64,000 nt of DNA from Candidatus Uhrbacteria bacterium (GTDB lineage Bacteria; Patescibacteriota; Patescibacteriia; JACQRZ01): the NCBI GenBank assembly GCA_016186045.1, contig JACPMJ010000005.1, positions 7,143 through 71,142 of the forward strand, written 5' to 3'. The translations under genes and the position numbers were made by a program. Shown here piece after piece: positions 3,084 to 38,586 of this stretch (positions within the stretch are counted from its first letter, which is position 1; each line of letters opens with the position of its first letter). The notes under the pieces are model-generated. The model made no database searches. It was not told the origin of the DNA and saw only the letters and a list, made by a program, of their open reading frames with translations.

Positions 3084-3148
3084 TATTTGACAGTTTTTAG
3101 AGTTGTGATATACTCATGGTATCTTACTTATGGATAGAAGGAAAGACT

Positions 3149-3463
3149 ATGCTTGCAGTGATTCGGACCGGCGGAAAGCAGTATATTGTCAAGGAGGGTG
3201 ACGTGCTTATCGTTGAAAAATTGAAGGGAGATGAAAATGACAGCGTCACATTTAAAGACGTATTGTTAATATTTGATGAAGCAGGAGAGCAGGTGCAGGT
3301 AGGAAGCCCAGTATTGAATGGCATTCAGGTAACAGGCACAATAGTAGAACAGGGAAGAGGGAAAAAAATATCAGTGATCAAATATAAGCGGAAGGTCAGA
3401 TATCGCAGAAAAAAGGGACATCGCCAGCATATTACGAAAGTGAAAATCACAAAAATTGGATAG
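3149..3463 (+). CDS. rplU: 50S ribosomal protein L21
   Basis: MLAVIRTGGKQYIVKEGDVL N-terminus typical of L21; AGGAAAG RBS before ATG 3149 (ORF track start 3116 probably too early). Confidence 0.9.
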   Translation: MLAVIRTGGKQYIVKEGDVLIVEKLKGDENDSVTFKDVLLIFDEAGEQVQVGSPVLNGIQVTGTIVEQGRGKKISVIKYKRKVRYRRKKGHRQHITKVKITKIG

Positions 3464-3491
3464 AAAAAACCGGGAATATTCCCGGTATTTT

Positions 3492-4094
3492 TTATACTTC
3501 CCGTCGCAATTTCATGGCATCGCCCAGAGTCACTTCGTCCGCGTATTCAATGTCTGCGCCACGTGGTAAACCGCGCGCGAGCCGCGTGACGCGTACCGGG
3601 TATGATTTCAAAAGTTTTGAGAGGTAGAGTGTCGTGCTCTCTCCCTCCAGATCCGGATTAAAAGCAAGGATAATCTCCTTTATTTTTTGATCCGGCTGCT
3701 TGAGCCGCTCAATAAGTTCTTTAATCGTGAGTCTGTCCGGTGTCACTCCTTCCAGGATATTGATGTTTCCTCCAAGCACATGATACATGCCGCGATAATC
3801 CCCGGTTTTTTCCAATGCCTCCACTTCGTGGCTGAATGCCACCACACAGAGCGCACTTTTTTCCCTTGACGGATGTAAACAGATCGCGCATGTCGTGCGA
3901 TCGCTGTAATTATGGCATACGATGCATGTCATGATGGAATCTCGGAGATTCATGATAAGCTTTGCTATACGCAAGAGTTCCTGCTGGTGTTGGCGCAACA
4001 GAAAAAAAACAAATCGTTGCGCTGATTTTTCTCCGATGCCGGGAAATTTTACGAATTGGTCTATGAGTGCTTGAATGGGGGAGGGGTAGGGCAT
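3492..4094 (-). CDS. recR: recombination protein RecR
   Basis: N-terminal HhH (FPGIGEKSAQR), C4 zinc finger CIVCHNYSDRTTCAIC, Toprim region. Confidence 0.9.
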   Translation of the reverse strand: MPYPSPIQALIDQFVKFPGIGEKSAQRFVFFLLRQHQQELLRIAKLIMNLRDSIMTCIVCHNYSDRTTCAICLHPSREKSALCVVAFSHEVEALEKTGDYRGMYHVLGGNINILEGVTPDRLTIKELIERLKQPDQKIKEIILAFNPDLEGESTTLYLSKLLKSYPVRVTRLARGLPRGADIEYADEVTLGDAMKLRREV

Positions 4095-5675: not shown

Positions 5676-5815
5676 AGGAGTGGGATAGTCTGTTATTTGG
5701 GCTTTTTTATTGTATCTGATATAATAAATTTATCAAGGAAGGCGAAGTGGATGAATAGTGGATGAAATACTTGATATTTTTTGGTTATTGTGGTGTAATA
5801 CTGGCATTGTGATAT

Positions 5816-5888
5816 GCGCCCATAGCTCAATCGGCAGAGCAACAGCCTTTTAAGCTGGTGGTTGAAGGTTCGATTCCTTCTGGGCGCA
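5816..5888 (+). tRNA. tRNA-Lys (anticodon UUU)
   Basis: Cloverleaf: acceptor GCGCCCA/TGGGCGC, D-arm TAGCTCAATCGGCAGAGC, anticodon loop CTTTTAA, T-arm GGTTCGATTCC, discriminator A; no encoded CCA. Confidence 0.85.
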
Positions 5889-5962
5889 GAATTGCGTCCC
5901 AAACGTTTTTTGAAAATAAAAAAAGCCGCAATAGCTTGTATCACGGCGTATAAGACTGGTTC

Positions 5963-16466: not shown

Positions 16467-17602
16467 AACATCATTTTTGTTTCACGAAGTCGTCTCATGT
16501 GTTGGAGTTCTTGCCAGTCTTGCCATGACCGATTAACGTATTGAAGAATCTCTTTTTTGAATCGGTCCGCGCTGAATTTCAGCGCATAATTTCTGATGAT
16601 CTGGGGAGAAAACTGATCTGGCTTAAATCTGATGACCGCGTCAATAAGCGCGGCATAATCCTGATCAAAAAAGAAGACGCCGGTTACCTTATCCACAATA
16701 GTCTCCAGAGCGCCGCCTGCGGCAAGGGCGATCACTGGTTTGCCAGATGCCATCGCCTCAATGGCGGTAATACCAAAATCCTCTTCCTGTGGGTGGAGAT
16801 ATGCGATACAGTTTTTGTACAGTTCAGCACGCACCGGGTCTGAAACCGCTCCGGTGAATATTATATTTTTTTTTGCATATGAGCGGAGTTTTTTATATTC
16901 CGGCCCTTCGCCAAATATGTTTAGTGGCAATCCAAGCCTGTTAAACGCCTGGACAATAAGATCAAACCGCTTATAGGAAACTAGCCGTCCGCCCGCCAAA
17001 TAGTGCTCCCCCGCCCTATTGGACATTGAAAATTTGTCAAGTTCAACCGGCGGATAGATGATGTCGCTCTCTCTCCGATAATATTTTTTTATCCGTTCTT
17101 GAACTGTTCGAGAATTTGCAATGAATTTATCCACACGATCAGCGGCTGAGCGGTCCCATATGCGTAGTCCGCTCAAAAGAAACGGCACTGCTCGTTTGAG
17201 CGCGCGCGGCTGGTGCAGTTCCTTCAGATAGCTATGTGTGTCTGTCCAGAGATATCGCGTGGGTGTGTGGCAATAGCAGATGTGAAGCGTAGTGGATTTT
17301 GTGATAATGCCTTTTGCAAATGCAGATGTGCTAGAAAGCACCAAGTCGTATCTACTAAGGTCATACGATTCGGTCGCGTTTGGCATGAGCGGCAAGAGCC
17401 ATTGATATTTTTTTTTCGCAAATGGAATGTTTTGGAGATATGATGGGATGATCTGCGCATGTGGAAAATATTCACCCAAGCGTTTTTTGTCATACACAAG
17501 GGTGAAGATCGGCGCTTTTGGATACAGCTCCGTAAATATTCTCAAAACCCGTTCCGCGCCGCCGAGCTGAGTAAGATGGTCATGGATAAGTGCGACATTC
17601 AT
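16463..17602 (-). CDS. glycosyltransferase family 4 (GT-B, RfaB-like)
   Basis: EDFGITAIEAMASGKPVIA (E-x7-E-type motif), GxG; overlaps neighbour by 4 nt. Confidence 0.8.
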   Translation of the reverse strand: MNVALIHDHLTQLGGAERVLRIFTELYPKAPIFTLVYDKKRLGEYFPHAQIIPSYLQNIPFAKKKYQWLLPLMPNATESYDLSRYDLVLSSTSAFAKGIITKSTTLHICYCHTPTRYLWTDTHSYLKELHQPRALKRAVPFLLSGLRIWDRSAADRVDKFIANSRTVQERIKKYYRRESDIIYPPVELDKFSMSNRAGEHYLAGGRLVSYKRFDLIVQAFNRLGLPLNIFGEGPEYKKLRSYAKKNIIFTGAVSDPVRAELYKNCIAYLHPQEEDFGITAIEAMASGKPVIALAAGGALETIVDKVTGVFFFDQDYAALIDAVIRFKPDQFSPQIIRNYALKFSADRFKKEILQYVNRSWQDWQELQHMRRLRETKMMF

Positions 17603-19020
17603 ACACGCGACTTTCTGGTTAAAACTTTCAGCGGGGTTTTGCAGAGAATGATAAAATCAATCCATGGCGACCAGTTTTCGATATAGTACATGTCAAGACG
17701 CGCCTCGTCTTCAAAATCAAGGTCGCTCCTGCCCTCTATCTGCGCCATGCCGGTAATGCCGGGCTTGATAGTGAAAAGCGCTCGATGATGTTTTGTATAA
17801 TGTGCCACTTGATTTGGCATATGCGGCCGCGGACCAACTAAACTCATGGATCCAAAAAGTACATTGAAAAGCTGGGGAAGTTCATCCAAGCTAAATCGTT
17901 CCAAAAATCTTCCCACGCGCGTGCGCCGCGGATCATTGAGGACTTTGTATACCGGTCCTTTGCGTTCGCTTTTTTCCTGCGCAAGCTGTTCTTCATACGC
18001 AAGCGCTTTTCCCGTGGCGTCGTATTTTTTTCCAGTACAATATTGGATGTACATAGATCGAAATTTATAGGCAAAAAATGCGCGTTCATCTTTTCCAACA
18101 CGTTCATTAAAATAAAATATCGGTCCGCGAGATTCCAAACGAATAGCGATTGCGATCATAAGGAAGATGGGGAGTAAGGTGATGATAATCATGCATGATA
18201 CGACGATATCAAAAAGCCGCTTCAGGATTTTTCCCCATCCTTCAAGACGCGTCCGTTTAACCTCTACAAGCGGTATGCCCGCAAGCGTGCGCACCTCCAA
18301 GCGTTTACTGCCAAACATGTCAGCGGAATAGCGAAATGGAATATGATGTTCGTTTGCAAAGTTTAGGATCGCATTCAGCATCGCATAATCAGCTGCAGGA
18401 CTGACAAGAAAAATTTCATCGAGTTTTTTGTGCAGTCGCATGGCATGAAGTGATTGCGCGGTTTCATCTGTCCATGCAGCGCACTGAAACACCACTTGGA
18501 ATCCCAGGGATGGCCGATGGTCAATTTCTGAAATAATTGGCGCAATGCGCGCCATATCTCCGATCATGGCGATGGAATGCAAGCCAACGCCGGCTTTGAA
18601 CAGCGCTGTTTCTGTCAGGCGCAAAAGCATGCGTCCCATGCTCACAAAAAGAAAGGAAAGAATCCATGCCGCCAGTACGATAAAGCGTGAGCTGAACAAT
18701 CCGCTGACAAAAAAGAGATACACCAGAATAAACATCATGCCTGTTGAGCAGGCGATGCATATCTTTTGTATCTCATTCCGTATCTTATAATGACCAATGG
18801 CATACAGTCCTGTCAGTGCAAAGACCGCGAGGAAGAAAAGCGAAACAGTCAGGAGTATCTGTGTGTACTGCGCGAGCGGAATTTCAAAAATCGCAGGACG
18901 GATGTCTGTTAACGCTTGGAAACGTAAAAAATACGCGGCATATCCTGCCGCGATCAACATACAAAAATCCAGTGGGACACGCAAGACGGTAAAAACAAGA
19001 TCGGTGCGGTTCATAGACAT
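17599..19020 (-). CDS. polyprenyl-phosphate sugar phosphotransferase (WbaP/WcaJ-like bacterial sugar transferase)
   Basis: LKRLFDIVVS...GPIFYFNERVGKDE...DELPQLFNVLFGSMSLVGPRP. Confidence 0.85.
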   Translation of the reverse strand: MSMNRTDLVFTVLRVPLDFCMLIAAGYAAYFLRFQALTDIRPAIFEIPLAQYTQILLTVSLFFLAVFALTGLYAIGHYKIRNEIQKICIACSTGMMFILVYLFFVSGLFSSRFIVLAAWILSFLFVSMGRMLLRLTETALFKAGVGLHSIAMIGDMARIAPIISEIDHRPSLGFQVVFQCAAWTDETAQSLHAMRLHKKLDEIFLVSPAADYAMLNAILNFANEHHIPFRYSADMFGSKRLEVRTLAGIPLVEVKRTRLEGWGKILKRLFDIVVSCMIIITLLPIFLMIAIAIRLESRGPIFYFNERVGKDERAFFAYKFRSMYIQYCTGKKYDATGKALAYEEQLAQEKSERKGPVYKVLNDPRRTRVGRFLERFSLDELPQLFNVLFGSMSLVGPRPHMPNQVAHYTKHHRALFTIKPGITGMAQIEGRSDLDFEDEARLDMYYIENWSPWIDFIILCKTPLKVLTRKSRV

Positions 19021-19030
19021 GTGTCATGTC

Positions 19031-19698
19031 GTTTTTTGACAACATGGCGCACCACATAAGCCGAATTCTGTATCCATCATCCGCCTCCGCCAGTTGGCGG
19101 ATAGCGGAGGTGGATGGTGACCATCACTCTATCTTCATGATTACCCATGAAGTATTGCGAGCGTCTATTGCTCTTGCATCTGGTAGGTGTTTGCCAAGCT
19201 GACACATCACTATGCCACTGGTGCGCTCTTACCGCATTTTGCATATTCTTTTTTAACTAGGAGAGTTTAAAGAACGATTTTGAATATGCAAGTATTTATT
19301 TGCGTCAACCCTTATTCGGGTATCCACACCATTTCACCCTTACCCATAGCCATCGCCTGGGCGGTATGTTGTTTCATTCAAATCATCCAAATGAAACCTT
19401 TGCGCATTCGCAAAGCTTTTCTGTTGCTCCCCTGTTTCTGAAAAATCAGAAACAGCGAAATTTGGCTCGTAAAAACCAAGACACTATCCCGTATGCCAGT
19501 CCCCTGCTTTTTTGAATAAGAAAAGGGTATTCCCCTCGTCTTGATCACATAAAAAAGAAAGAAAAAGCCATAGGTCGCTGTTAGCGACTACCCTGTTGTC
19601 CGGCAGTGCCGGACAGATGTTCGGACTTTCCTCCCCTGAATATGGAAATATATCCATTTCAAGGGCGATCACCGTGGTGCGCCATGTTGTCAAAAAAC
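19031..19698 (-). ncRNA. rnpB: RNase P RNA (bacterial type A-like, about 670 nt with large insertions)
   Basis: Minus strand carries GGGGAGGAAAGTCCGAAC (P4 5' strand), GCAACAGAAAAGC, GGGTAAGGGTGAAATGGTG, GCGGTAAGAGCGCACC, ACAGAATTCGGCTTA (P4 3' strand); ends form 25-bp perfect helix (19031-19055 / 19674-19698). Confidence 0.8.
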
Positions 19699-19755
19699 AG
19701 TATGAGATTACTATAGTACTATAGAGAAGAAAAGTCAAGGATGTGAAAAGAAAAA

Positions 19756-19826
19756 GCTACCTCGCGCGCTGGCGGGTAGCTTGAGTGTCATTTCGATCCG
19801 CCAGCTGGCGGAGAGAAATTCCGACG
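19756..19826. repeat. palindromic repeat family member (hairpin GCTACCTCGCGCGCTGGCGGGTAGC plus GTCATTTCGATCCGCCAGCTGGCGGAGAGAAATTCCGAC)
   Basis: Core CCGCCAGCTGGCGG at 19798-19811. Confidence 0.7.
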
Positions 19827-19839
19827 ATTCAGTATGACG

Positions 19840-21666
19840 TTACTTGAGATTTTTTACGATCTCTTCAAGAATATCTCCGAAATTGTTCAGGCAGTCCTCC
19901 ATGGTACTGAACAAAAGTTCGGTGGGATAGATATGCGGAGTACCGTGAACCCCAATGAACATGTGAATGACGATAATGCCGGACTCCTTGAGCTCACGGG
20001 AGATTCGCGCCGCGAGCTTCAGGTCATCCGGACCGTCATCGCAGAGCATGATGAGAACTTTACGCTTTCGCTTTGACTCGCGTAGTTTTTTTGCGGCGAC
20101 CGTGAGCATGTGCGTATCCGAGTTCCCATCATCCGCGCTAATGACAACGAATGACGGGAACTTACTGGGAGGGCCGTAATCGTAGATGATTTTTGAATTG
20201 AACGCCCAGATGTTTCCCGCACACACCGGATGAAGCGCCATAATCGCCTCAGAAAAGAGAACGGCGATTTGTTTTGCTTGTTCTATCTTCTCCCCAGCCA
20301 TGGATCCGCTTCTATCAATGCAGAGATGAATCTCCGCATCAATATTTCGCTCTTCCACGATGTCTTTTAGAAATCCGGAGAGGCCTGTTGCGATGCGTGC
20401 GACCTCTCGAGTATCCAGCTCCCCCTCGTCCTGCCCATAGAGGATGTATTCGGAGGGATTTTCGAGACGCTTGAGCTTTCGCACCAGCGGCTCTACAAGA
20501 TGTTGGACCGAAGCAAGAATGCGATTATACGCGGGAGCGTGAACGCCATTTCTTGGAATGCTTTTGACGGGAACCGTATCTTCCCTGCCTACGGAATGTG
20601 GTCCGCGCGGATACGCGGCGCGCATACCTCTCATCCACTTGACGAGATTATTGAGCGCCTGATTTCTTCCTACTTTGAGAGTTCCTGCCATGATTGCATT
20701 GAGATTTCCAAGGAGTGCGGGATCCAGTGGCTCTCCCATCTCAATACTCGCGGCCAAGAGACAGAGCGCGATGAACTTTTGTTCAAATTCCTTGCGAAGA
20801 TTTTTGAGATTCTGACTCTTTCCCTGTTCCTTTTCTTTTTCATCAGGATCGCCAAGAATCGCGTGGATTTCTTGGGCGGCCCAGAGGAGATAGTCCGGTG
20901 TCGCAGTGAGAAGAAGTTTCGGAGAGATCAGTTTCATCGCCTTATGCACCTTCCTGATGCGCGGGCGCTTGTGCCACTTTGCCGCGAAGAAAAAATCTTC
21001 ATAGGCATCAGTTGGTTTCCAATTCCGAAGAATTAAGGTGATATGCGCCTCTCCTGTTTTTTGCGTCGAAAGGTTTCGAGCGCTCCGAGAGAGATTCTTT
21101 TTCTGCTTTTCTTTTTTTGCCGATATTTTCGCGTGGAGGGGTTTCGGATGCTCTGTGTTTCGTATGTATGTTGAGAGTATTTGCGCAAGGGTTTGTCTGC
21201 GCGCCATCGTGGAGACATAGGCGAGACGCCTACGCAGTGTACTCGCAAATCCCGGCGCATGGCCTGCGGTTAGGATATCATCTTTGCGATCAAGGATGAT
21301 ATTGGTGATATGTTGTAAGATATCTCCGCCAAAGTCGTACGCCTCTGCAAGAAGTTTTGTCCCATAAGGGGAAAACTTGATATGACCGCTCTCATGATAG
21401 CCGGTTCCAAAACCGACCTCCTCATGTCCTTCAGTGAAAAACCATGGAGAGATACGTACCTCGGCGATGCAATCCGTACTTGCGGTCGGAATACTTGCAT
21501 CAAAGATAAGCCGGAACGGCTTACCGATAAGCGCGGTAAGGTGATCACAGAGAATCGGAAAGACGCGTTCAAGAATCTTTTTATCCCGTTCTTCTTTTGG
21601 AAGTGCGGCCTCTATCGCCACATCCATCTGATCAAGGGTATCTTGAATACGGGAAAAAGCGTTCAT
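19840..21666 (-). CDS. von Willebrand factor A (VWA) domain protein, CobT-like architecture (about 430-aa unknown N-terminal region + C-terminal VWA)
   Basis: MIDAS motif LCIDRSGSMAG, VWA beta-alpha pattern in C-terminal third; last gene of RT-ATPase-VWA module. Confidence 0.8.
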   Translation of the reverse strand: MNAFSRIQDTLDQMDVAIEAALPKEERDKKILERVFPILCDHLTALIGKPFRLIFDASIPTASTDCIAEVRISPWFFTEGHEEVGFGTGYHESGHIKFSPYGTKLLAEAYDFGGDILQHITNIILDRKDDILTAGHAPGFASTLRRRLAYVSTMARRQTLAQILSTYIRNTEHPKPLHAKISAKKEKQKKNLSRSARNLSTQKTGEAHITLILRNWKPTDAYEDFFFAAKWHKRPRIRKVHKAMKLISPKLLLTATPDYLLWAAQEIHAILGDPDEKEKEQGKSQNLKNLRKEFEQKFIALCLLAASIEMGEPLDPALLGNLNAIMAGTLKVGRNQALNNLVKWMRGMRAAYPRGPHSVGREDTVPVKSIPRNGVHAPAYNRILASVQHLVEPLVRKLKRLENPSEYILYGQDEGELDTREVARIATGLSGFLKDIVEERNIDAEIHLCIDRSGSMAGEKIEQAKQIAVLFSEAIMALHPVCAGNIWAFNSKIIYDYGPPSKFPSFVVISADDGNSDTHMLTVAAKKLRESKRKRKVLIMLCDDGPDDLKLAARISRELKESGIIVIHMFIGVHGTPHIYPTELLFSTMEDCLNNFGDILEEIVKNLK

Positions 21667-21728: not shown

Positions 21729-21845
21729 AGGGAATAGAGGGTGTCATCCTGAGTGATAACGAAGGATCCCGTTGGTATCATGTTTTTAACATCGGGATTC
21801 CTCTCCGCCAGCTGGCGGATCGGAATGACATACATAGTATTCCCT
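21729..21845. repeat. A-type palindromic element copy 1 (GTCATCCTGAGTGA...GGGATTCCTCTCCGCCAGCTGGCGGATCGGAATGACATACATAGTATTCCC)
   Basis: Right 49 bp identical (1 mismatch) to 38451-38499; core CCGCCAGCTGGCGG 21805-21818. Confidence 0.8.
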
Positions 21846-22062
21846 AAAAAAGAGGGGGAACGAACGTTTTTCATTCCCCGTGGTGGAGAGGTTGGATATT
21901 TGATGGGCTGCCCCGTAGCCGGTATTCCCGCGATCGGGAATACCGTGCCGAGCCCTCGCGTTCATCGCGAGGGTGAGGGGGCCACGCTTACCCTGTTTGA
22001 CCGCAGACTCCCTGATTCTGGTACAGAATCAGATCAGCGTCCACGCAAAAGCGTATGCAGTA

Positions 22063-22183: not shown

Positions 22184-23341
22184 TTATGGAATCTTCATGG
22201 TAAGAGTGGCAAACGCCTTCGCCGCCTCTGTCCCGGACTTCACATCGATGGTTCCATCCTTCAAAACTTTAATGTCGGATGAATACTTATCAAGAAGTCC
22301 TCGCACGACCGCGAGTTTGAGCTTCCATCCTCCGAGCATGAGGCGCGCGGTGTTTCTGCATCCGCGATAACTCGGGGCGTATGAGATAGCGCCGGAATGC
22401 GCGAGATCGCGTATTGCTCGTGCGACCTGCACGATTGCGAGCGCGGCGCGTTCCGAGATACCCACCTCATCCTTGAGTTTTTTCACCTCGAAGTCCTCCG
22501 GCATGGACTCCACCCAAATGAATCCAAAACGATCCTGAAGAGCGGTGCCGAGAGAGAAGACGTCTTGATGCTGTGCGCCTTGATTCATGGTCCCGATGAA
22601 GTGAATATTCGGCGAGAGTCTGATCGTAACACTCCCGTCGGTCGTAGTAATAGCAATTTGCCCGGTGTCATCAAAAAGACCGTGCATACCCTGATGCGAC
22701 TTTTCATGGATGCGATTGATCTCATCCAAGATGACGAGGAAGTGCGTGTTCAGTCCTTGAGCGTATGCGATATTCGCCCGCTCTACGTAATCTGCAAAGG
22801 CGGACTTGACAAACTTTGTTGATGCATTCACTGCGGCATCGGATCCAAACATGTCGTTGCCATGCTTGATCGTCTCAATGTCCACCTTGCAGGGTTCTTG
22901 CCAGTGAAGGGCGTGAGCCACCGCATAGCCAAGGGTCGTCTTTCCGCTTCCCTTATCACCGAGAAGGATGACGTTGGTTCCATTGTTCAGCCAGTTCAAA
23001 AGCTGGCTCAACATAAGTGGATCGGTCCAGTGGCCAGGCAATTCTTTGATCTTTTGCCAGTCCGCAAGCTCCGTTTTTCTGGAAATAAGTCGCACAAACG
23101 ATGTACTCGTTCCCTTGCGACTTTTTTCTTGTCGTTCAAGTTCAACATGCCAAATATCACCATCATTGACGGCAACATTTGTCTGGTTTATCACCTGAAT
23201 CGCGGGAGGAATGTCATATTCCTCAACAAACGAAAGACAAGACACACCCTGTTCGGTGGTATGCGCTCGGGCAAGAAGTAAGTCCGCCATTATGTATCCA
23301 TCCTTTCTTTCTGTATCTTTGTAAAAGTACGGTTCCTCCAT
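22184..23341 (-). CDS. AAA+ ATPase, MoxR/CbbQ/NirQ/CobS-like, with about 110-aa N-terminal extension
   Basis: Walker A GDKGSGKTT, Walker B FLVILDEINR, sensor region IGTMNQG, arginine-rich C-terminal helical lid. Confidence 0.85.
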   Translation of the reverse strand: MEEPYFYKDTERKDGYIMADLLLARAHTTEQGVSCLSFVEEYDIPPAIQVINQTNVAVNDGDIWHVELERQEKSRKGTSTSFVRLISRKTELADWQKIKELPGHWTDPLMLSQLLNWLNNGTNVILLGDKGSGKTTLGYAVAHALHWQEPCKVDIETIKHGNDMFGSDAAVNASTKFVKSAFADYVERANIAYAQGLNTHFLVILDEINRIHEKSHQGMHGLFDDTGQIAITTTDGSVTIRLSPNIHFIGTMNQGAQHQDVFSLGTALQDRFGFIWVESMPEDFEVKKLKDEVGISERAALAIVQVARAIRDLAHSGAISYAPSYRGCRNTARLMLGGWKLKLAVVRGLLDKYSSDIKVLKDGTIDVKSGTEAAKAFATLTMKIP

Positions 23342-23359: not shown

Positions 23360-23490
23360 GTCATTGCGAGGGATCCGCCTCCGTCTCCGCCAATTGGCGG
23401 ATGGCGGAGGTGGAAACCGTGGCAATCCCAATTAGAGATCCCTCGTCCCTCGGGGGTACTCGGGATGACATTACTTCGCTCGGGATGACA
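23360..23490. repeat. A-type-related palindromic element in reverse orientation (GTCATTGCGAGGGATCC...CCGCCAATTGGCGG...CTCGGGATGACATTACTTCGCTCGGGATGAC)
   Basis: Core CCGCCAATTGGCGG 23387-23400; reverse complement of 3' end equals GTCATCCCGAGCGAAG start of A-type element. Confidence 0.7.
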
Positions 23491-23656: not shown

Positions 23657-24901
23657 TTATTTGAAAGGAATGGACTCGTCCGCAGTATCCTTCTTCTTGC
23701 GACTTCTGCGCCGAGGTGGCTCCTCGGTGGCAATCTGTGTTTCCGCCGAAGTTTCCGAAGTTTGCGGCTCTGGAGTGACAGCAGTCGTTTTCTTGCGTCT
23801 GCGCGGTTTCTTACCTAACTCTCCGGCAAGCTCATTGAACTTGATGGTCTTGAGCTCGGTTTCGGCTTTTTCCGTAATAGCACGAACCTTGCTTGGGAGC
23901 TTGTCAGAATAGATATGGCGAAGATAGCCGATAGTGCCGGCGATCTCTCCGTATACCTGTTTGGTGGGCTCCGCCTTGATGACCGCGAGGAGCTTGTTGA
24001 TCCTCGCGCGGAACTGGTTTAGCTTGTTTGGGGCAAGCGTAATCCGTCCGTCCGGAGCCAAAACGATTCCCGTGATCACTGGTACTGCTCCGGTTTTTGG
24101 AGTGAAGTACTTCGTCTTGTCTTTCCGTTCATGAGGAAAAAATCCATTCTTTTTCATGACGGCAAGAATCCTCTTTCGGAGCTCCCCGGGAATTTCTTCC
24201 TCAAAGGAGATCGTGAGATCATCGCACCATACCGTGATGCGATACTCCTGAAGCGGTGTGGAGTTTTCCGAGATCAGCTTCCAGATATCCTGATCCATCT
24301 TACAGCAGACGATATCAAGGATGCGTGGACTGGTCGGAGGGCCTTGCGGGAGACGGTCATGGAGACAGACGAGATCCACGAGAGACTCGAGCATCTGTTT
24401 TATCTCTTCCGCCTCGAATGTCTGTCCGGAAAATTGCTTCAGCGCAAAGGTGAAGGGTTTGCGAAGATTCGCGCGGATCCTACTCCGATAGACACTGGGA
24501 AAGGCGTTCACAATGTCGATCGAAAAGGCTCGCTCATTTCCCGCGTGGTGCTCTGCGTTTGTCTTCACACTGCACCCTCGCTGGTTCCCGTGCCTGCAGA
24601 AATGTACCGGAATGGAAATTAGAAATCTGTTAAGGATCTTTCGCTGGACGCTTTTAAGTTCATCACAGGGAGCCGCATAACGTCGTACTCCTCTGCCCGG
24701 CCCCTTTGATTCCGCCCACTCGCGGTATGCCGCCTTTTGACGAAGCTTGTCGAGACAAAAATCCCACTCCTGCGTGGAGAGATGAAGCAAGAGTCGTAAA
24801 ATTCGCGCAAGTCGTTCTGGAAGCTCCAGAACGCTCTCGAAATCCTTGTACACCCATTCTTTGGGCGTATGACGCCGACGCCGACGTGTTGAAGTCGCCA
24901 T
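23657..24901 (-). CDS. reverse transcriptase, retron-type/retron-like
   Basis: SKGPGRGVRRYAAP (motif 1), NAEHHAG (NAxxH), FSIDIVNAFPSV (motif 2), LPQGPPTSPRILDIV, VWCDD catalytic box (YADD variant), KTKYF, VITGIVL (VTG); 130-aa C-terminal extension with basic tail. Confidence 0.8.
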   Translation of the reverse strand: MATSTRRRRRHTPKEWVYKDFESVLELPERLARILRLLLHLSTQEWDFCLDKLRQKAAYREWAESKGPGRGVRRYAAPCDELKSVQRKILNRFLISIPVHFCRHGNQRGCSVKTNAEHHAGNERAFSIDIVNAFPSVYRSRIRANLRKPFTFALKQFSGQTFEAEEIKQMLESLVDLVCLHDRLPQGPPTSPRILDIVCCKMDQDIWKLISENSTPLQEYRITVWCDDLTISFEEEIPGELRKRILAVMKKNGFFPHERKDKTKYFTPKTGAVPVITGIVLAPDGRITLAPNKLNQFRARINKLLAVIKAEPTKQVYGEIAGTIGYLRHIYSDKLPSKVRAITEKAETELKTIKFNELAGELGKKPRRRKKTTAVTPEPQTSETSAETQIATEEPPRRRSRKKKDTADESIPFK

Positions 24902-25537: not shown

Positions 25538-25560
25538 ATGATATTAAACTGGATTCCAGG

Positions 25561-25604
25561 GTCATCCGCCATCCACCAACTGGCGGAGGCGGACAGGAAT
25601 GACA
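25561..25604. repeat. palindromic family member (GTCATCCGCCATCCACCAACTGGCGGAGGCGGACAGGAATGACA) overlapping recJ stop codon
   Basis: Encodes the last residues RLRQLVDGG and stop of RecJ on minus strand. Confidence 0.7.
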
Positions 25605-38404: not shown

Positions 38405-38499
38405 GTCATCCTGAGTGAAGCGAAGGATCCCGTTCGTGATAAAGAGCTGGGATTCCTCTCCGCCAGCTGGCGGATCGGAATGACATACATAGTATACCC
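38405..38499. repeat. A-type palindromic element copy 2
   Basis: GTCATCCTGAGTGAAGCGAAGGATCC...CCGCCAGCTGGCGGATCGGAATGACATACATAGTATACCC; marks the gap-proximal edge of the GC-rich island. Confidence 0.8.
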
Positions 38500-38586
38500 T
38501 ATTTTTATAATCTTCACAAAATAAAAAAAGACTTATTGCATTTTGCGATAGGTCTTTGAAATTTTTTTTGCGGAATTACGGGGATG

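Follow-up and report, generated by a model that had tools for sequence, protein, structure and literature searches.

RNase P is a tRNA-processing enzyme whose catalytic RNA cuts the 5' leader from precursor tRNAs. A length of 250 to 550 nt is usually given for bacterial RNase P RNAs (PMC2996960), and those of the candidate phyla radiation (CPR) are divergent and hard to detect, as was already reported in 2021 (PMC8172020; Lui et al. 2021, PLoS Comput Biol). In that study, 10 of 35 CPR RNase P RNAs were missed by Rfam thresholds, many had large helix extensions or were without P13, P14, P16, or P17, and 23 of 35 had no UGG. Loss of the P15-P16-P17 arm with P6 is known in some type A lineages and in CPR (PMC8172020). 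A search for literature specific to the RNase P RNA of Patescibacteria or Parcubacteria found nothing. The gene described here, rnpB of a Candidatus Uhrbacteria bacterium (CPR/Patescibacteria), occupies positions 19031 to 19698 of the minus strand in a 64,000-nt stretch of contig JACPMJ010000005.1, the whole of which is called the window below. It is a bacterial type A RNase P RNA gene of 668 nt, counted from the first to the last base pair of P1, compared with 367 positions in the RF00010 consensus. Very probably it is functional and encodes an active ribozyme with lineage-specific expansions, in which the tip of one helix, P19, has recently been occupied by a genomic repeat.

All five conserved blocks can be read directly on the minus strand where a first-pass annotation, made by a model from the sequence, had proposed an RNase P RNA of type A ancestry and about 670 nt. 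The blocks of conserved regions (CR) I to V, including GAGGAAAGUCC, ACAGAAA..ACCGCC, GGUAAGGGUGAAA, and ACAGAAnnCGGCUUA, are invariant in six homologs. When the gene alone was scanned (19029 to 19700), RF00010 aligned from 19042 to 19683 over its full length (model positions 1 to 367), with 102.5 bits (gathering score, 100; E = 3.4e-32). By score, membership in class A is marginal and filter dependent: a whole-window Rfam scan at gathering thresholds reported a tRNA as its sole match and no RF00010, and a permissive scan (E up to 10) of the 951-nt slice from 18900 to 19850 gave RF00010 only 65 bits, in a misaligned match that skipped the true 5' third of the gene. Besides RF00010, that permissive scan of the slice returned three chance-level matches and no group I or II intron, and BLAST of rnpB against phage records found no match. 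The covariance-model scan that the first-pass annotation had proposed as a check therefore missed the gene in the whole window and recovered it at full length, with no much shorter boundary, in isolation. Its insertions defeat the heuristics of covariance-model search, which is why routine annotation overlooks the gene.

Five relatives were compared with the window, four of them close (L083, L084, L085, and L086) and one more distant (L001). L083 came from a pattern scan of metagenomes; L084, L085, and L086, with the partial L087 and L088, came from contigs encoding 78 to 86% identical sugar transferases, the gene that follows rnpB. The other two of the three matches in the pattern scan (L081 and L082) were chance occurrences inside protein-coding genes, which resemble regulators (unverified). 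The rnpB genes of L083 to L086 are 617, 633, 665, and 639 nt long, that of L001 is 541 nt, and the expansions are carried by five independent assemblies from different samples. By rnpB identity, L085 and L086 are the closest pair (87%), and two protein markers pair the window with L083 and L085 with L086. Among 15 scanned Patescibacteria rnpB loci, 11 passed the Rfam gathering score, and one detected locus gave a 698-nt match in a Jacksonbacteria metagenome-assembled genome (L035:3105-3802), so the window's RNA, although large, is surpassed in size. An rnpB of about 700 nt is also found in Parcubacteria GW2011_GWA2_43_13 (L033, about 3090 to 3770); by eye, it and the Jacksonbacteria gene have big insertions at other sites, after P5 and in P12.

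Secondary-structure modeling, also suggested in the first-pass annotation, was carried out by combining the covariance-model alignment with a separate fold of each homolog, which yielded 214 bp, including the P4 pseudoknot, every one a canonical pair in the window. RNAalifold, applied to three full-length sequences, mispaired P5, P7, and P10/11 and was not used for the core. Across the six-sequence alignment, 90.2% of cells were paired, compared with 40 to 46% when partners were shifted by 1 to 3 columns, and 72 pairs had changed on both sides, compared with 14 to 20 in shifted controls and 33 in shuffles (0 of 500 shuffles reached 72). Compensatory changes in 72 pairs, in six genomes at about 80% identity, indicate purifying selection on the structure.

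The RNA retains P1 to P5, P7 to P12, P15, CR-I to CR-V, and the P4 pseudoknot, together with P13, P14, and P18, which are typical of type A (Table 1). P4 forms 8 pairs with 19058 to 19065, with U74 bulged and standard pairs in six of six sequences, and has AA/UU in place of the GG/CC of the Rfam consensus. The ends of the RNA do form the perfect 25-bp helix that had been claimed for them; the outer 12 bp of this P1 (UUUUUUGACAAC) do not vary among the five closely related genomes, and its inner part shows covariation. P19 lies between the 3' strand of P2 (19116 to 19122) and ACAGAA (19066 to 19071).

Table 1. Coordinates of rnpB, its structural elements, and its predicted promoter in the window (window coordinate = 19699 minus RNA position)
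Feature	Coordinates	Strand	Description and basis
rnpB	19031..19698	-	RF00010 full-length match, 214-bp curated structure, whole-RNA folding z = -11 vs shuffles
Predicted sigma-70-type promoter	19710..19738	-	TTGACT, 17-nt spacer, TATAGT; 10/12 matches in promoter scan
P1 5' strand, 25 nt	19674..19698	-	Pairs with 19055-19031; 7 pairs with double changes
P3, 33-nt hairpin	19633..19665	-	Folding z = -3.8; double changes in 10/13 pairs
CR-I / J3/4 and P4 5' strand (GAGGAAAGUCCGAAC)	19619..19633	-	Direct reading; P4 pairs
P5.1-like hairpin, 17 nt, between P5 and P7	19598..19614	-	14-nt insert in covariance model; z = -4.3
P7 5' strand and P8 (UAAC-type loop)	19575..19592	-	Covariance-model alignment and covariation
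P9 expansion, 143 nt vs ~15 in consensus	19432..19574	-	Long irregular hairpin plus two more; z = -4.6
P10/11 5' strand and first half of J11/12 (GGAGCAACAGAAAAGC)	19415..19430	-	Identical in window, L083, L084, L085, L001; one A-to-G change in L086
Two hairpins in J11/12, 45 nt, between ACAGAAAAGC and AACAUACCGCC	19371..19415	-	In all 6 homologs, stems differ; z = -4.9
Short P12 and J12/13 (GGUAAGGGUGAAA)	19332..19364	-	Covariance-model alignment and folds
P13 as three-way junction	19219..19331	-	Stem GGUGUG/CGCACC, hairpin 13a, UGAC, long hairpin 13b, then conserved GGUAAGAG
13b loop, 18 nt, GUUCUUUMAACUCUCCUA	19258..19275	-	Invariant but for one A/C position in window and L083-L086
P14, 7 bp, GUGA loop	19200..19217	-	Double changes in 5/7 pairs
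P15 cut to 4-bp hairpin, loop AAUAGAC	19159..19173	-	4 nt vs 41 in covariance-model consensus
P18, 8 bp, GUAA tetraloop	19133..19152	-	Covariance-model alignment; double changes in 6/8 pairs
P19, 44 nt, nested palindromic repeat	19072..19115	-	Three stacked stems; dG = -27 kcal/mol, z = -4.3
14-nt palindromic core (CCGCCAACTGGCGG; CCGCCAACUGGCGG in RNA)	19087..19100		Repeat-family scan, BLAST
CR-V: ACAGAA and P4 3' strand (ACAGAAUUCGGCUUAU)	19056..19071	-	Direct reading, covariance model, covariation
P1 3' strand, 25 nt	19031..19055	-	Perfect 25-bp helix with 19698-19674

The location of the extra length differs from what was first proposed. An insertion of about 200 nt had been assigned to the P3/P5 region, whereas the approximately 190 extra nucleotides of the 5' half lie between P8 and P12, in the specificity domain, as the P9 hairpins (143 nt) and the J11/12 hairpins (45 nt), with the 17-nt P5.1-like hairpin as a separate element. 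The added segments are AT rich, as had been noted, with GC fractions of 0.32 to 0.39 in P9, J11/12, and L13 compared with about 0.45 for the genome, and each of them adopts the same fold in every homolog from different stem sequences. The three P9 hairpins were reproduced by independent folds of the homologs, with 48 pairs of which 17 show compensatory changes, and this segment is 86% identical to that of L083, a value above those of P3 or P12. J11/12 is part of the conserved core of the specificity domain, and it is divided by two hairpins in all six homologs. The P5.1-like hairpin is likewise present in all six close homologs with differing sequences and was seen by eye in most other Patescibacteria sequences that were read; its position is single stranded (the P6 strand) in standard type A RNAs and is the position of P5.1 in type B.

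A further expansion is in L13, where about 100 nt of AT-rich sequence had been noted between GGTG and a conserved block; 93 nt separate GGUG from GGUAAGAGC, at a GC fraction of 0.32. The three-way layout of P13 is the same in all six homologs, and its stem of 7 bp is 98% paired. Whereas L001 has a short hairpin 13b, the five closely related genomes have a long one, with a perfect 10-bp stem in the window. The stem beneath the nearly invariant loop of 13b differs in each of the five genomes, at an overall rnpB identity of about 80%. Since GGGGA occurs three times in the RNA, a pairing of CUCUCC in this loop with GGGGAG (19427 to 19432), though conceivable on paper, is unsupported. L001, which is without the long 13b, has CCGGAG at the GGGGAG position.

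Other parts of the RNA have been reduced. P16, P17, and P6 are absent, P15 is a closed 4-bp hairpin in all six homologs, and the GGU motif that pairs with the 3'-CCA of tRNA is absent from L15, with no GG in the loop of any of the six. This loss is consistent with the tRNA-Lys(UUU) gene of the window (5815 to 5889), which encodes no CCA and ends in GCGCA followed by GAATTG past the discriminator base. No tRNA genes were found at the relatives' loci, and the CCA-less argument rests on the window's single tRNA gene. Because loss of P6, P16, and P17 is known in some type A lineages and in CPR, it does not exclude membership in class A.

The comparison of sequences shows that most of the extra length consists of old, conserved, covarying expansion segments common to the five relatives, and not of recent insertions or artifacts. 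This reverses the first-pass description of the extra segments as insertions, with one exception, since the palindrome in P19 alone looks like a recent repeat insertion. The first-pass annotation had placed that palindrome at P18, in a hairpin from 19074 to 19126 just 5' of ACAGAA. Its place 5' of ACAGAA and its membership in a palindromic repeat family both held up. The span did not, and the position between the 3' strand of P2 and ACAGAA is that of P19, with a canonical P18 present separately.

Allowing at most one mismatch, the 14-mer CCGCCARYTGGCGG has 9 copies in the window compared with 0.06 expected, and none of 100 shuffles reached 9. P19 is the sole part of rnpB with copies elsewhere in the window by BLAST; the best match is 91% over 35 nt (23380 to 23414), and matches to four other copies had E values from 5.6e-7 to 2e-3. 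By eye, the copy at 23387 is the one most like that of P19, the two agreeing at about 28 of 30 nt across the 5' arm and core. All nine copies share an invariant, asymmetric 18-nt core, UCCGCCARYUGGCGGAG, which folds as a 6-bp GC-rich stem capped by a 4-nt loop and flanked by an A/G mismatch, and the variable lower stems often repeat the heptamer of the core. Eight of the nine are intergenic or at a gene end, and by our tally about 5 are in sense orientation, 3 are antisense, and 1 is in a divergent intergenic region.

Filled and empty sites could be compared in rnpB itself. In the relatives P19 is 16 to 19 nt long, except in L085, where it is 31 nt and has the same core. The plain helices of L083, L084, and L086 read AUCCGCU-cuuu-AGCGGAU, AUCCGGC-uuuuu-GUCGGAU, and AUCCGC-GUAA-GCGGAG, so that P19 is filled in the window and in L085 and empty in these three, including the 7-bp helix of L083, the nearest relative. 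P19 of L085, which comes from a different sequencing run (SRR22388272), has the lower stem of L086 with the GUAA loop swapped for CAA-CCGCCAACUGGCGG-AG, and a second core (CCGCCGACUGGCGG) sits at the tip of the P5.1-like hairpin of L085. Since a short P19 exists in all relatives, the repeat entered an existing helix and did not create one, and the pre-existing stem (AUCCGC/GCGGAK) was kept. The first-pass annotation had offered repeat insertion or recruitment of the repeat as the P18 helix; insertion stands, into P19, and the making of a new helix does not. Because the protein markers pair the window with L083 and L085 with L086, two independent gains at P19 are more parsimonious than one gain followed by several precise losses, which suggests repeated colonization of helix tips by the palindrome.

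A second filled site lies at the 3' end of the RecJ gene (25540 to 25600; copy at 25573 to 25586), where the window has a nested hairpin of about 58 nt that is absent in L084 and L086. RecJ is 605 amino acids long in the window and 592 in L084 and L086, the element adding 13 codons, and this filled-versus-empty comparison identifies the whole nested hairpin of about 58 nt as the inserted unit. No clear target-site duplication was found at the two sites compared, and the family core was found neither in the 21 kb of synteny of each of L084 and L086 nor in 11 kb of L083 or the other loci retrieved. Insertion of the core into the loops of pre-existing host hairpins was considered as a general rule and rejected, because the relatives have no hairpin at the RecJ site and lower stems often repeat the heptamer.

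Several further features of the family were seen. The copies at 21805 and 38460 (21775 to 21848 and 38430 to 38503) are alike over about 80 nt (gaaggatcccgtt...gggattcctct-core-atcggaatgacatacatagtat), and this similarity beyond the core implies a longer subfamily element. A GUCAUYY motif occurs on one flank in 5 of the 9 copies. At the site orthologous to 19780 to 19830, upstream of the rnpB promoter, L086 (L090:9215-9265) has the same outer arms (GAATTCC...GGAATGACAC) with another apical hairpin (CGGCGCAAGGCC), and L083, L084, and L085 have nothing there; outer arms and core may evolve or move separately. At the 3' end of rnpB in L087 (L087:80-118) and L088, P19 is a different GC-rich palindrome of 35 nt (CACGCACGAACAGCGCATGCGCGCTGCTCATGCGG), and P19 seems to be a hot spot for palindromic growth in this clade.

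Rather than a passive, selfish insertion, the palindrome could be a recruited functional module, such as a protein-binding, processing, or stability element, repeatedly selected at the tips of rnpB helices. Wherever the core is found in rnpB, at P19 in the window and L085 and at the tip of P5.1 in L085, it has one orientation relative to the RNA; judged from the marker pairings, its two occurrences at P19 seem to be independent; the only two cores in 14 kb of the L085 contig are both in rnpB; and the core is invariant and asymmetric above lower stems that vary. Against such a role, the nearest relatives (L083, L084, and L086) do with a plain P19, so the module is dispensable, and the intergenic or gene-end location of most window copies in mixed orientation points to an element acting at the level of DNA. 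The lack of copies in the 13.4 kb of L085 outside rnpB is also not significant, as about 1.9 would be expected at the density of the window. We therefore regard a selected module as rather unlikely, and insertion of a mobile palindrome as the better account of P19.

A different possibility concerns the expansions, which could be intervening sequences that are spliced out or cut by RNase III, leaving a mature RNA that is normal sized or fragmented. In CPR, rRNA genes are known to carry insertions that do not appear in the mature rRNA, and the segments here are AT-rich, long, regular hairpins at helix tips, among which the 25-bp P1, the 10-bp stem of 13b, and the nested P19 might be good substrates for RNase III. 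The permissive Rfam scan that detected no intron also found no other family, and at 45 to 145 nt the segments fall short of the size of self-splicing introns. Compensatory changes preserve the pairing of their helices and the 18-nt loop is invariant, a pattern in keeping with segments that act within the folded RNA, although conservation could also extend to a processing signal. Removal of the segments is accordingly judged very unlikely.

Assembly error was one outcome that would have undone the first-pass description. In short-read assemblies, mis-joins can arise at short, GC-rich palindromic repeats, and the P19 palindrome or the other insertions could in principle be an artifact or a repeat-made chimera. 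The hairpin is flanked, however, by correctly ordered conserved sequence on both sides (the 3' strand of P2 and ACAGAA), the independent assembly of L085 has the same core in the same place, and the other expansions recur in five independent assemblies, which makes an artifact extremely improbable. A decaying pseudogene whose function has passed to a protein-only RNase P would explain the unusual length and the failure of standard annotation, but with all conserved regions and all P4 pairs intact, the promoter conserved, and compensatory change throughout the structure, it can be given almost no credence.

The account that we prefer begins with transcription of rnpB from its own sigma-70-type promoter, the product being the catalytic RNA of RNase P. 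The universal catalytic core and the type A helices P13, P14, and P18 are intact, and the lineage has remodeled the periphery: P6, P16, P17, and the CCA-binding GGU are lost, a P5.1-like hairpin fills the old P6 strand, and P1 and P3 are enlarged by structured expansions, as are P9 with its three hairpins, J11/12 with two, and L13 with two more, of which one bears the invariant 18-nt loop. We infer that these segments are retained in a catalytically competent mature RNA, where they may serve as peripheral scaffold or docking sites in the manner of rRNA expansion segments. A nested palindrome resembling REP or MITE elements (defined below), presumably spreading through intergenic regions, would recently have taken the tip of the pre-existing P19, and the insertion, probably neutral, would be tolerated, as this helix is oriented away from the active site.

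Several points pull the other way. The covariance-model score barely exceeds the gathering score, and does so solely with the gene isolated. The stretch from P10/11 into J11/12 was aligned differently by the model in the window and in L083, with low posterior probability, so that the P10/11 pairing and the exact register of J11/12 are tentative. Hairpins splitting J11/12 would also not be expected if the mechanism were fully canonical. Three occurrences of the core inside rnpB in two genomes fit selection for the hairpin as well as they fit neutral insertion, as does the confinement of the core to rnpB in L085. The mature ends, the retention of the expansions, and activity are predictions from DNA sequence, and the 64 kb of genome covered leaves room for a second rnpB or a protein-only RNase P elsewhere.

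The surroundings of the gene are conserved as well. The -10 box of the predicted promoter ends 12 nt upstream of P1, and the TTGACT and TATA(G/C)T boxes are kept at the same position in L083, L084, L085, and L086. The gene downstream (17599 to 19020, minus strand) encodes a Bac_transf sugar transferase, and an RNase P RNA lies directly upstream of its ortholog, on the same strand, in about 30 Patescibacteria genomes; across those loci GAGGAAAGUCC and ACAGAA are 271 to 622 nt apart, the figure for the window being 562 nt. The start codon of the transferase is 10 to 16 nt past the last base of P1 (19014 to 19031 in the window) and 5 to 40 nt past it in relatives. This gap in the window has no terminator and is too short for a promoter, and the order rnpB then transferase is kept across the roughly 30 genomes. 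The arrangement suggests that the two are cotranscribed and that the mRNA is freed by processing at P1.

Farther upstream, a retron-type reverse transcriptase (23657 to 24901, minus strand) was identified as PADLOC RT_XIII (E = 4e-36) in a cluster of genes for RecJ, an RNase H-like protein, the reverse transcriptase, an AAA (MoxR-like) ATPase, and a protein of about 600 amino acids with a weak VWA match. Members of this cluster also lie at 22184 to 23341 and 19840 to 21666 (both minus strand), they are syntenic in L084 and L086, and the repeat copy at 23387 is just downstream of the reverse transcriptase. The cluster could be a retron or another reverse transcriptase-based defense system.

Nothing at this locus changes what RNase P is or does. 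It does provide a concrete, well-supported example of how rnpB comes to be left without annotation in CPR genomes, where expansions break the heuristics of covariance-model search, and this matters for checks of genome completeness. The six-genome comparative structure of a very large bacterial RNase P RNA shows peripheral sites that tolerate growth, including the normally highly conserved J11/12, and the palindromic repeat at rnpB helix tips in two genomes is a natural experiment in how much structural change RNase P, an essential ribozyme, can tolerate. A more far-reaching proposal is that the clade has a distinct subtype of RNase P RNA, in which a type A specificity domain is joined to a partly type B-like catalytic domain (P5.1, P19, and no P6, P16, or P17) with seven extra helices, the J11/12 hairpins and the invariant 13b loop form a new functional module (for example, a lineage-specific protein contact or altered substrate recognition), and the palindrome repeatedly targets, or is selected at, rnpB helix tips, twice independently at P19 and once at P5.1. 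We consider this proposal as a whole doubtful.

Compared with class A (RF00010, the Escherichia coli M1 RNA type), the window's RNA shares the five conserved regions, the P4 pseudoknot, P1 to P5, P7 to P12, P13, P14, P15, and P18 with a GNRA-type loop. It differs from that class in having no P6, P16, or P17, no GGU in L15, a hairpin between P5 and P7, three hairpins for P9, two hairpins in J11/12, a three-way junction in L13, a P1 of 25 bp, and a P19 of 44 nt. P19 itself occurs in some type A and in type B RNAs (PMC2858038, helix table). Likeness to class B (the Bacillus type) consists of the hairpin between P5 and P7 (P5.1), P19, and the absence of P6, P16, and P17 (PMC2858038). However, P13 and P14, which type B is without, are present here, and no P10.1 or P15.1 was found, so the contact between L5.1 and L15.1 made in type B (PMC5066622) cannot form. 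The RNA is a partial look-alike of type B and not a member.

The nearest described counterparts are the CPR RNase P RNAs of PMC8172020, in which the same features appear: a miss by Rfam defaults, large extensions, and loss of P16/P17 and of the UGG/CCA-binding motif. The examples given there come from other CPR classes and show an extended P15 and loss of P12, P13, P14, and P18, whereas P12, P13, P14, and P18 are kept here. The portions of that paper considered here do not describe expansions of P9, J11/12, and L13 together with a genomic repeat in P19, nor does the literature examined describe the combination of a type A specificity domain with a P5.1-like hairpin and expansions at P9, J11/12, and L13.

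The repeat also has described parallels. Repetitive extragenic palindromes (REP), bacterial interspersed mosaic elements (BIME), and elements like miniature inverted-repeat transposable elements (MITE) resemble it in being multicopy, mostly intergenic, imperfect nested hairpins of about 40 to 60 nt that are present or absent between related genomes. It differs from them in its invariant 18-mer core on variable lower stems and in having copies inside a structural RNA gene, with one copy extending the RecJ frame. Short tandemly repeated repetitive (STRR) heptamers reportedly occur inside P12 of rnpB in heterocyst-forming cyanobacteria (Vioque 1997, Nucleic Acids Res 25:3471), an earlier case of a short genome-wide repeat lengthening an rnpB helix. 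The arms of the P19 repeat resemble stacked heptamers as well (UCCGCYA-UCCGCCA ... GGCGGAG-GCGGAU), but the cyanobacterial repeats are tandem direct repeats in P12, and the element described here is a nested palindrome in P19 and P5.1.

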